A stretch of 2,876 nt of DNA from Escherichia coli (GTDB taxonomy: Bacteria > Pseudomonadota > Gammaproteobacteria > Enterobacterales > Enterobacteriaceae), in assembly GCF_003334315.1 (NCBI RefSeq), contig NZ_QOWR01000107.1. One strand, 5' to 3'. The notes under the pieces are model-generated. The model was not told the origin of the DNA and searched no databases. It saw only the letters and a list, made by a program, of their open reading frames with translations. The translations under genes were made by a program, and so were the position numbers. Positions 849 through 1,109 of this stretch are shown here, piece after piece (position 1 is the first letter of the stretch; every line of letters begins with the position of its first letter).

Positions 849-1109
849 TTAGGGAAAAATAAGAAAAAAATAATCATCTTCTACATTTGTGTATATTGAT
901 ATATCCACCGCTACGTGCGGAAAAAAATCTGGGAGCCATGTAAAAACTCCATCATTTTCTGGTATTGCCATATAGTTTATGTAATGTTTACTTACAAGAG
1001 ATTCATCTTTGTATAAATAAAGATAAGTAATTACGCATAAAACAACAATGATTATAATAGCAAAAATAAATATTATCATCTTTGATAGATTACTTGAGAT
1101 AGCCAGCAT
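849..1109 (-). CDS. Hypothetical small membrane protein (86 aa, one predicted TM helix); candidate immunity protein for the orphan toxin
   Basis: Seen in sequence: ATG at 1107..1109 overlaps the last 20 nt of the orphan toxin ORF, with an AAGG 9 nt upstream (plus 1119..1122). An alternative in-frame ATG at 1077..1079 lies just past the toxin stop but has no SD. Residues ~11-33 ([23 protein letters not shown]) form a strongly hydrophobic stretch. Position and strand fit the toxin-then-immunity rule of Rhs and CDI loci. The ORF is AT-rich and short, so it could be fortuitous. Confidence 0.45.

Follow-up and report, generated by a model that had tools for sequence, protein, structure and literature searches.

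An annotated 86-aa ORF behind the orphan Rhs tip ylbH of Escherichia coli is the 5' remnant of a frameshifted ybbD gene, whose intact form is a likely immunity partner

Genomic Features of the rhsD Element

The stretch of DNA analysed here (the window, 2,876 nucleotides in all) is 99.9% identical to the rhsD element of Escherichia coli, and 1761 complete genomes have a place covering at least 80% of it. The locus order in E. coli is rhsD–ybbC–ylbH–ybbD, which in K-12 MG1655 comprises rhsD (b0497), ybbC (b0498), the pseudogene ylbH (b0499, named rhsH in PMC9948719), and the pseudogene ybbD (b0501, 528640..529130). The following features were located in the window:

2208..2876, minus strand: 3' end of full-length rhsD with the C-terminal tip of that gene (ORF list and annotation)
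1800..2168, minus strand: ybbC, an ORF of 122 aa of the PF15631 family, following the current RhsD C-terminal tip
1090..1800, minus strand: orphan Rhs tip ylbH, 236 aa, with the last part of the core, as far as DPLGL, and then a 142-aa toxin domain
1093..1518, minus strand: the 142-aa toxin domain of ylbH, with weak serum-amyloid-A similarity
1119..1122, minus strand: AAGG, a possible Shine-Dalgarno sequence, 9 nt 5' of the ybbD ATG and within the toxin coding sequence
620..1109, minus strand: the whole ybbD pseudogene, 490 nt in the window
849..1109, minus strand: 86-aa ORF, the ybbD 5' fragment, ATG start and 86 codons (NF011297, WP_001320180.1)
1011..1079, minus strand: N-terminal transmembrane (TM) helix, residues ~11-33 (Kyte-Doolittle; AF2 helix 6-32, pLDDT ~95)
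918..965, minus strand: signature IPxxxGVxTWLPxFFP, residues 49-64 (family alignment)
921..927, minus strand: T7 run within the 86-aa part, intact in the window (T8, frameshifted, in 238 genomes)
864..870, minus (coding) strand: frameshift 1, T7 where intact alleles have T8 (alignment and in silico repair)
752..757, minus (coding) strand: frameshift 2, A6 where intact and K-12 alleles have A7 (alignment and in silico repair)
695..702, minus strand: third homopolymer run, T8, intact in the window (T7 in the O157-type locus L006)

Judged by its position, ybbC is the presumptive immunity gene of the current RhsD tip. Its stop overlaps the ATG heading the orphan tip ORF (TAATG at 1798-1802, minus strand), so that translation of the orphan tip could be coupled to that of ybbC; in RefSeq, the tip is a pseudogene incomplete at its N-terminus, with a start further in. 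A step in GC content lies at the junction of the orphan core and tip, with 59% in the core remnant (1560-1800) vs. 35% across the tip and ybbD (620-1560), and the 86-aa ORF itself has 28%; the step fits the H-NS/StpA binding published for ybbC–rhsH–ybbD. At the other end of the window, positions 1-92 correspond to the end of an IS3-family transposase CDS in near-identical genomes (K-12 MG1655 has no such CDS at this site), and positions 158-253 (minus strand) hold a short remnant of the pseudogene ylbI.

Identity of the 86-aa ORF

A sequence-only reading of this DNA had proposed the 86-aa ORF as a candidate unannotated immunity gene of the orphan toxin. Its description of the layout was confirmed: the ORF lies at 849..1109 on the same strand as the tip ORF and starts 20 nt before the toxin stop, with a 20-nt overlap at 1090..1109, and AAGG stands 9 nt upstream of its ATG, which is directly preceded by …GATAAAGGCTTTACAAG. 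The single TM helix that had been claimed was also recovered, with a hydropathy peak of 3.37 over residues 12-30 (Kyte-Doolittle, 19-residue windows), followed by 53 non-hydrophobic residues. The ORF is, however, not unannotated: it is the front part of the known gene ybbD. A RefSeq CDS has identical coordinates (WP_001320180.1, "hypothetical protein" or "YbbD family protein"), the K-12 gene bears the locus tag b0501, and the short-form NCBIfam model NF011297 matched the ORF with 193.9 bits (cutoff 173, E 4.7e-58); because of this homology, we take the ORF as genuine coding sequence. The full-length form, NF011298, matched it with 177.3 bits (cutoff 326) and only at model positions 1-85 of 163, and the intact or repaired 163-aa YbbD scored 377.6 bits on that model.

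Relatives carry the Pfam family PF26610 (YbbD_head) in precomputed annotations and the UniProt name "YbbD head domain-containing protein"; a Pfam-A scan of the 163-aa YbbD, with a library lacking PF26610, returned no significant match. NF007301 (PRK09781) matches YbbD at E 2.4e-16, and no match to YbbD was obtained by BLASTP among the Rhs-linked K-12 proteins YbfC, YbfB, YdcD, and YibG. In the promoter scan, the number of sites was no higher than in shuffled controls. A terminator-like hairpin (GGAGTTTTTACATGGCTCC) is located at 932-950 inside the ybbD head (minus strand) and is followed by the T7 run at 921-927.

Truncation of ybbD by Homopolymer Frameshifts

Intact ybbD measures 492 nt (163 aa and a stop) and was found in the E. 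coli loci L005, L007, L016, L017, and L018, vs. 491 nt in K-12 b0501 and 490 nt in the window. According to the alignment, all length differences in the ybbD region fall in homopolymer runs, which compare as follows:

Intact allele: tract 1 T8, tract 2 A7, tract 3 T8
K-12 allele: tract 1 T7, tract 2 A7, tract 3 T8
Window allele: tract 1 T7 (864-870), tract 2 A6 (752-757), tract 3 T8 (695-702)
O157-type allele (L006): tract 1 T7, tract 2 A7, tract 3 T7

The one-base deletion in tract 1 leads to a stop at 849-851, such that codons 1-82 of the ORF are authentic and are followed by four out-of-frame codons (LIFP) and TAA. The window thus has no intact ybbD frame, with two frameshifts against the intact alleles, and adding one T and one A in silico restored the full 163-aa YbbD from its sequence. 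Two one-base deletions have broken a 163-aa gene here, and the 86-aa ORF is what remains of its 5' part. K-12 and the window agree in gene, locus, T7 frameshift, and 86-aa first ORF, but K-12 lacks the second frameshift (A7 instead of A6, the latter being shared by 202 complete genomes); the window differs from K-12 also in the neighbouring toxin, where it has a private change of Asp to Asn.

A census of 5426 complete E. coli genomes, ~2760 of which carry ybbD, was made with exact matches to short allele-specific queries and gave the following numbers of genomes, in which assembly or sequencing error may account for part of the run-length differences:

Tract 1: T7, which yields the 86-aa ORF, 1731; T8, 956
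Tract 2: A7, 2476; A6, the state of the window, 202
Tract 3: T8, 1888; T7, 361
Run inside the head (window 921-927): T7, 2213; T8, frameshifted at codons 61-63, 238 (including O26 and O103 strains)

An intact ybbD is possible in about one third of the carriers at most. Four homopolymer runs were struck independently in E. coli, one of them inside the "head". Tract 3 varies among O157:H7 genomes, with T8 in PV15-279 and no exact T8 match in ATCC 35150, which may be an assembly error. Outside E. coli, Hafnia alvei (L014; FMIQ01000046.1, 3974-5048) carries a diverged orphan tip and a ybbD with T7 at tract 1, giving ORFs of 86 aa and 57 aa; the closest relative of this allele, L011, has T8, which makes the loss of a T in Hafnia independent. 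The Hafnia toxin contains a 4-nt AGAT duplication that leads to a premature stop. As for the conservation of the ORF, homologues down to 21% identity were found, and frameshifts occur at four runs across E. coli. This pattern of run lengths is one of relaxed selection and recurrent slippage, and is unlike the upkeep of an 86-aa product. It makes ybbD a clear case of an orphan toxin/immunity module decaying via repeated homopolymer slippage.

Missing Half and Predicted Fold of YbbD

Comparison of intact alleles gave a dN/dS of 0.19-0.50 over codons 1-85, and of 0.13-0.59 over codons 86-162. When 1.84 billion representatives were searched exhaustively with phmmer, 48 matches to YbbD were returned, ~20 of which are full-length relatives of 140-183 aa with 21-40% identity, aligning over residues ~10-153. 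In a 24-sequence alignment, the best-conserved stretch of YbbD_head is the signature IPxxxGVxTWLPxFFP, in which P60 and P64 are invariant and I49, G54, W58, L59, and F63 are kept in at least 90% of the rows; it is retained in the 86-aa ORF after the TM helix. The same alignment showed a conserved Cys123 (in WCK) and a near-invariant Cys161, both past residue 86; in the window these two are coded only in the other two frames downstream.

AF2 gave an unusable model with a 6-sequence alignment (pLDDT 51.7), and a usable one once distant homologues were added (pLDDT 91.3, pTM 0.75), which consists of a TM helix at residues 6-32 and one alpha/beta domain at 38-151. Frameshift 1 falls within the strand 80-86 of this model. 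The 86-aa product is accordingly the anchor plus ~40% of one 115-residue alpha/beta domain, and the ~50-aa soluble tail of the earlier reading is only that part of a single domain. Because of the dN/dS values, the full-length relatives, the late cysteines, and the single AF2 domain, the second half of YbbD is counted as functional; it is real, constrained protein sequence. In the YbbD family, the functional unit measures 163 aa, vs. the 86-aa "head" in many annotations.

Several YbbD homologues have a lipoprotein signal in place of the TM helix, for example …LTAC followed by D or …ISC followed by S, and proteins named 'Lipoprotein' are among the AFDB neighbours of YbbD. A periplasmic location of the domain would fit the conserved cysteine pair.

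The Partner Toxin Tip

The 142-aa ylbH tip matched no significant Pfam family and had no PDB sequence match. Pfam SAA was weakly matched by five of the six members of the toxin family (best E 5.6e-5; E at most 0.001 in three of the six), and by the tip of the window at E 0.0015-0.0054, which is below Pfam significance. The sNxxGR site reads VNDHGL in the ylbH tip, with N and G present and R absent. Previous work modelled the C-terminus of the O157 RhsD z0651 as SAA1-like (TM-score 0.623; PMC7216683), which agrees with the weak SAA matches of the ylbH tip. According to Burroughs et al. (bioRxiv 10.1101/2025.01.14.632903), SAA belongs to the Lipocone superfamily and prok-SAA is among the polymorphic-toxin tips, predicted to cleave lipid head groups in the periplasm, and the immunity proteins of Lipocone toxins are all TM proteins or lipoproteins. 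The ylbH tip appears to bear a weak resemblance to serum amyloid A (Lipocone).

At 1402-1404 (minus strand), the tip of the window carries Asn in the context GGTNQFFHC, at residue 133 of the 236 of the tip ORF (toxin-domain residue 39). Asp occupies this residue in all diverged homologues and in each of the 12 other E. coli loci that were compared (T/S-D-QFFHC). The private G-to-A change (Asp to Asn) lies beside the invariant QFFHC and may inactivate the toxin of the window.

The C-terminal tip of RhsE at the K-12 rhsE–ydcD locus (L021, 891-3405) matched Pfam DUF6973 at E 2.7e-12. It has the motifs HCxxxCR…K and N..G..C…CSD.C in common with the ylbH tip; at a BLASTP E of 0.022 and an hhalign probability of 36%, homology between the two was not accepted beyond the level of a motif-based lead.

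Pairing with the Tip and Predicted Immunity Role

In EC21Z-048, an intact Rhs of 1403 aa with a ylbH-type tip is followed by an intact YbbD with the 20-nt overlap. This overlap was seen in L005, L007, L008, L011, L012, and L017. Synteny downstream of homologous tips, which the earlier reading had put forward as a check, was borne out by homologous tip–YbbD pairs in diverged relatives (L008, L011, L012, L023, and the Hafnia locus L014). In L023, the YbbD homologue (38% identical) follows a tip that is 55% identical and has the same tip motif, with a 10-nt gap. In L008 and L011, the toxin is 79-86% identical and YbbD only 50-69%; an immunity partner diverging faster than the toxin is typical of toxin/immunity pairs. 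A further locus (L024, a Logan SRR31860670 contig, 2-2556) contains an Rhs tip (HExxH-type), a 127-aa ORF, a 183-aa YbbD homologue, and another Rhs tip; no toxin immediately precedes this homologue, which has the look of an orphan immunity gene within a tip/immunity array.

Because of the conserved adjacency, the co-occurrence with homologous tips, and the faster divergence than the toxin, YbbD is the best immunity candidate, and the intact protein is predicted to be the likely immunity protein of the upstream Rhs tip. The proposal that an immunity gene lies here would therefore hold for the parent gene ybbD and not for the 86-aa ORF, which is a remnant of it. YbbD would act in the periplasm, because of the lipoprotein homologues, the SAA-like toxin, and the immunity rule of Lipocone toxins; a periplasm-facing, membrane-anchored topology is probably to be assigned to it. 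By gene context, the YbbD family is tied to SAA-like Rhs toxin tips.

We propose that YbbD would bind the toxin, and thereby block it, on the periplasmic side of the inner membrane. Together, the ylbH tip and ybbD may represent an older tip/immunity pair of RhsD, which would have been pushed downstream when a new tip and ybbC were placed on the rhsD core. In the window, the two homopolymer deletions would have inactivated ybbD, such that only a TM helix and a non-folding fragment of the domain could be made. Taken as a whole, this account, in which the ORF is a ybbD remnant, intact YbbD a periplasmic immunity protein, the pair an older one displaced, and ybbD inactivated in the window, is in our view quite likely correct.

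One locus counts against it. The O157-type L006 (NZ_CP015023.1, 1845-6282) has an apparently intact full-length Rhs with a ylbH-type tip, followed by the truncated 86-aa ybbD, a combination that would not be expected with an active toxin and a need for full-length YbbD. Silencing by H-NS, a toxin that is inactive or not delivered, or a head fragment that still functions are possible explanations.

Alternative Explanations

The 86-aa product could itself be a functional small membrane protein, with a role in immunity or elsewhere, for which T7 is kept. The T7 allele is the majority one (1731 of the ~2760 carriers), adjoins an intact full-length Rhs toxin in L006, and retains the best-conserved motif (residues 49-64). 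In addition, Goodall et al. found K-12 ybbD free of transposon insertions from Met to the first stop, with many insertions after the stop in the TraDIS data, and suggested that the truncated CDS is perhaps functional. However, the insertion-free zone extends over ybbC and the toxin tip as well, and matches the region of H-NS/StpA binding; Choe et al. reported the insertion-free stretch as ybbC–rhsH–ybbD and attributed it to occlusion by H-NS/StpA, which we take as the better explanation of the K-12 zone. The decay of ybbD bears in this way on the reading of the published "possibly essential truncated ybbD" TraDIS signal. Further against a function of the 86-aa product, 238 genomes have a frameshift inside the head, the whole domain is kept in all diverged full-length homologues with dN/dS below 1 in its second half, and the truncation cuts a beta-strand of the single AF2 domain and removes the conserved cysteines. 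We consider such a function unlikely.

A different role for YbbD, as another tip-linked membrane protein (accessory protein, chaperone, or export factor) or as unrelated cargo of the Rhs element, appears improbable as well. In its favour, YbbD_head is a domain of unknown function in Pfam, and the authors of PMC7216683 saw no informative motif in the putative immunity locus and raised a chaperone-like alternative. Against it, ybbD is strictly 3' of the C-terminal tip, unlike upstream chaperones, YbbD diverges faster than the toxin, its homologue in L024 stands alone in a tip/immunity array, and its TM or lipoprotein build matches that of the immunity proteins of Lipocone toxins. The Eag or DUF1795 chaperones of Rhs loci lie upstream.

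Full-length YbbD could also be made at a low level or switchably, through -1 ribosomal frameshifting, transcriptional slippage, or reversible phase variation of the runs. Slippery heptamers stand in frame at both sites (864-870, U UUU UUU; 752-757, A AAA AAG), the exact intact protein would result from a -1 shift at each, and run lengths vary even among O157:H7 genomes. Nevertheless, two independent events would be needed in the window, at 6-8 nt the runs are short for contingency loci, frameshifts at second sites pile up on T7 backgrounds (the window and L006), pointing to irreversible decay, and some of the run-length differences may be assembly errors. A stimulatory structure downstream of the slippery runs was not found (folding z-scores +1.24 and -1.51). 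This makes recoding or switching very unlikely.

That either the truncated head or trace full-length YbbD from -1 slippage still protects the cell, or has another function, is to be given a rather small chance. If true, it would account for T7 in 63% of the carriers, for the pairing in the O157-type locus, and for the K-12 insertion-free segment. On a separate and smaller point, YbbD_head would add to the immunity families of Lipocone (prok-SAA) toxins one that is absent from the list of the Lipocone survey.

Finally, a chance open frame in AT-rich DNA (28% GC) has a negligible probability and is ruled out by the homology evidence, for although the length of the ORF is weak evidence for a gene, since mononucleotide shuffling of the 571-nt region gave an ATG-ORF of at least 86 aa in 41 of 2000 cases (2%), the NF011297 match at E 4.7e-58, the motif common to homologues down to 21% identity, and dN/dS below 1 all speak against it.

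Comparison with Known Systems

A putative immunity protein, 'RhsDI' (z0654), has been proposed in silico for RhsD (z0651) of EHEC EDL933 (PMC7216683). It represents the same idea as that raised for the window, a small ORF 3' of an Rhs gene as its immunity gene, and z0654 may correspond to the ORF at 849..1109. In O157 the tip sits on a full-length Rhs, whereas in the window it is on an orphan, and the RhsDI ORF was not recognised as a truncated form of a 163-aa protein in that study; in the O157-type L006, the sole CDS annotated directly after Rhs is the 86-aa ORF. The ORF is accordingly already known, both as an annotated, named pseudogene fragment and, in the sense of a downstream immunity ORF for Rhs, from print (PMC7216683), and is of little weight as a discovery. 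Neither ybbD nor ylbH is mentioned in Jackson 2009 or Poole 2011, a literature search for rhsH or YbbD_head gave only sonic-hedgehog matches, and no report of YbbD neutralising the tip was found in the searched literature.

A scan of genome contigs for ybbD returned only L013 (CASFSC010000074.1), a contig of 4 kb assigned to 'uncultured Alistipes sp.' whose rhsD–ybbC–ylbH–ybbD is nearly identical to that of E. coli; the contig almost certainly comes from E. coli and was mis-binned, and the scan added no taxonomic breadth.

The immunity proteins of Lipocone toxins (Min-Wnt, prok-SAA, TelC), e.g., TipC and BamE-like proteins (bioRxiv 10.1101/2025.01.14.632903), are membrane-anchored or lipoproteins like YbbD, and both they and YbbD are predicted to face the periplasm, are encoded right after the tip, and evolve fast. 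The predicted fold of YbbD, with a TM helix, ~8 strands, 2 helices, and two conserved Cys, matches none of the six Lipocone immunity folds listed there, and the name 'YbbD' is absent from the main text of that paper.

YdcD, encoded 3' of rhsE (NF050020; PDB 8wj5, 'double-wing domain'), resembles YbbD in its length of ~160 aa, its N-terminal TM helix, and its overlap with the stop of the Rhs tip; it consists of the TM helix and a domain of ~130 aa. Judged from these likenesses, the rhsE tip with ydcD and the ylbH tip with ybbD may be remote sister toxin/immunity pairs.
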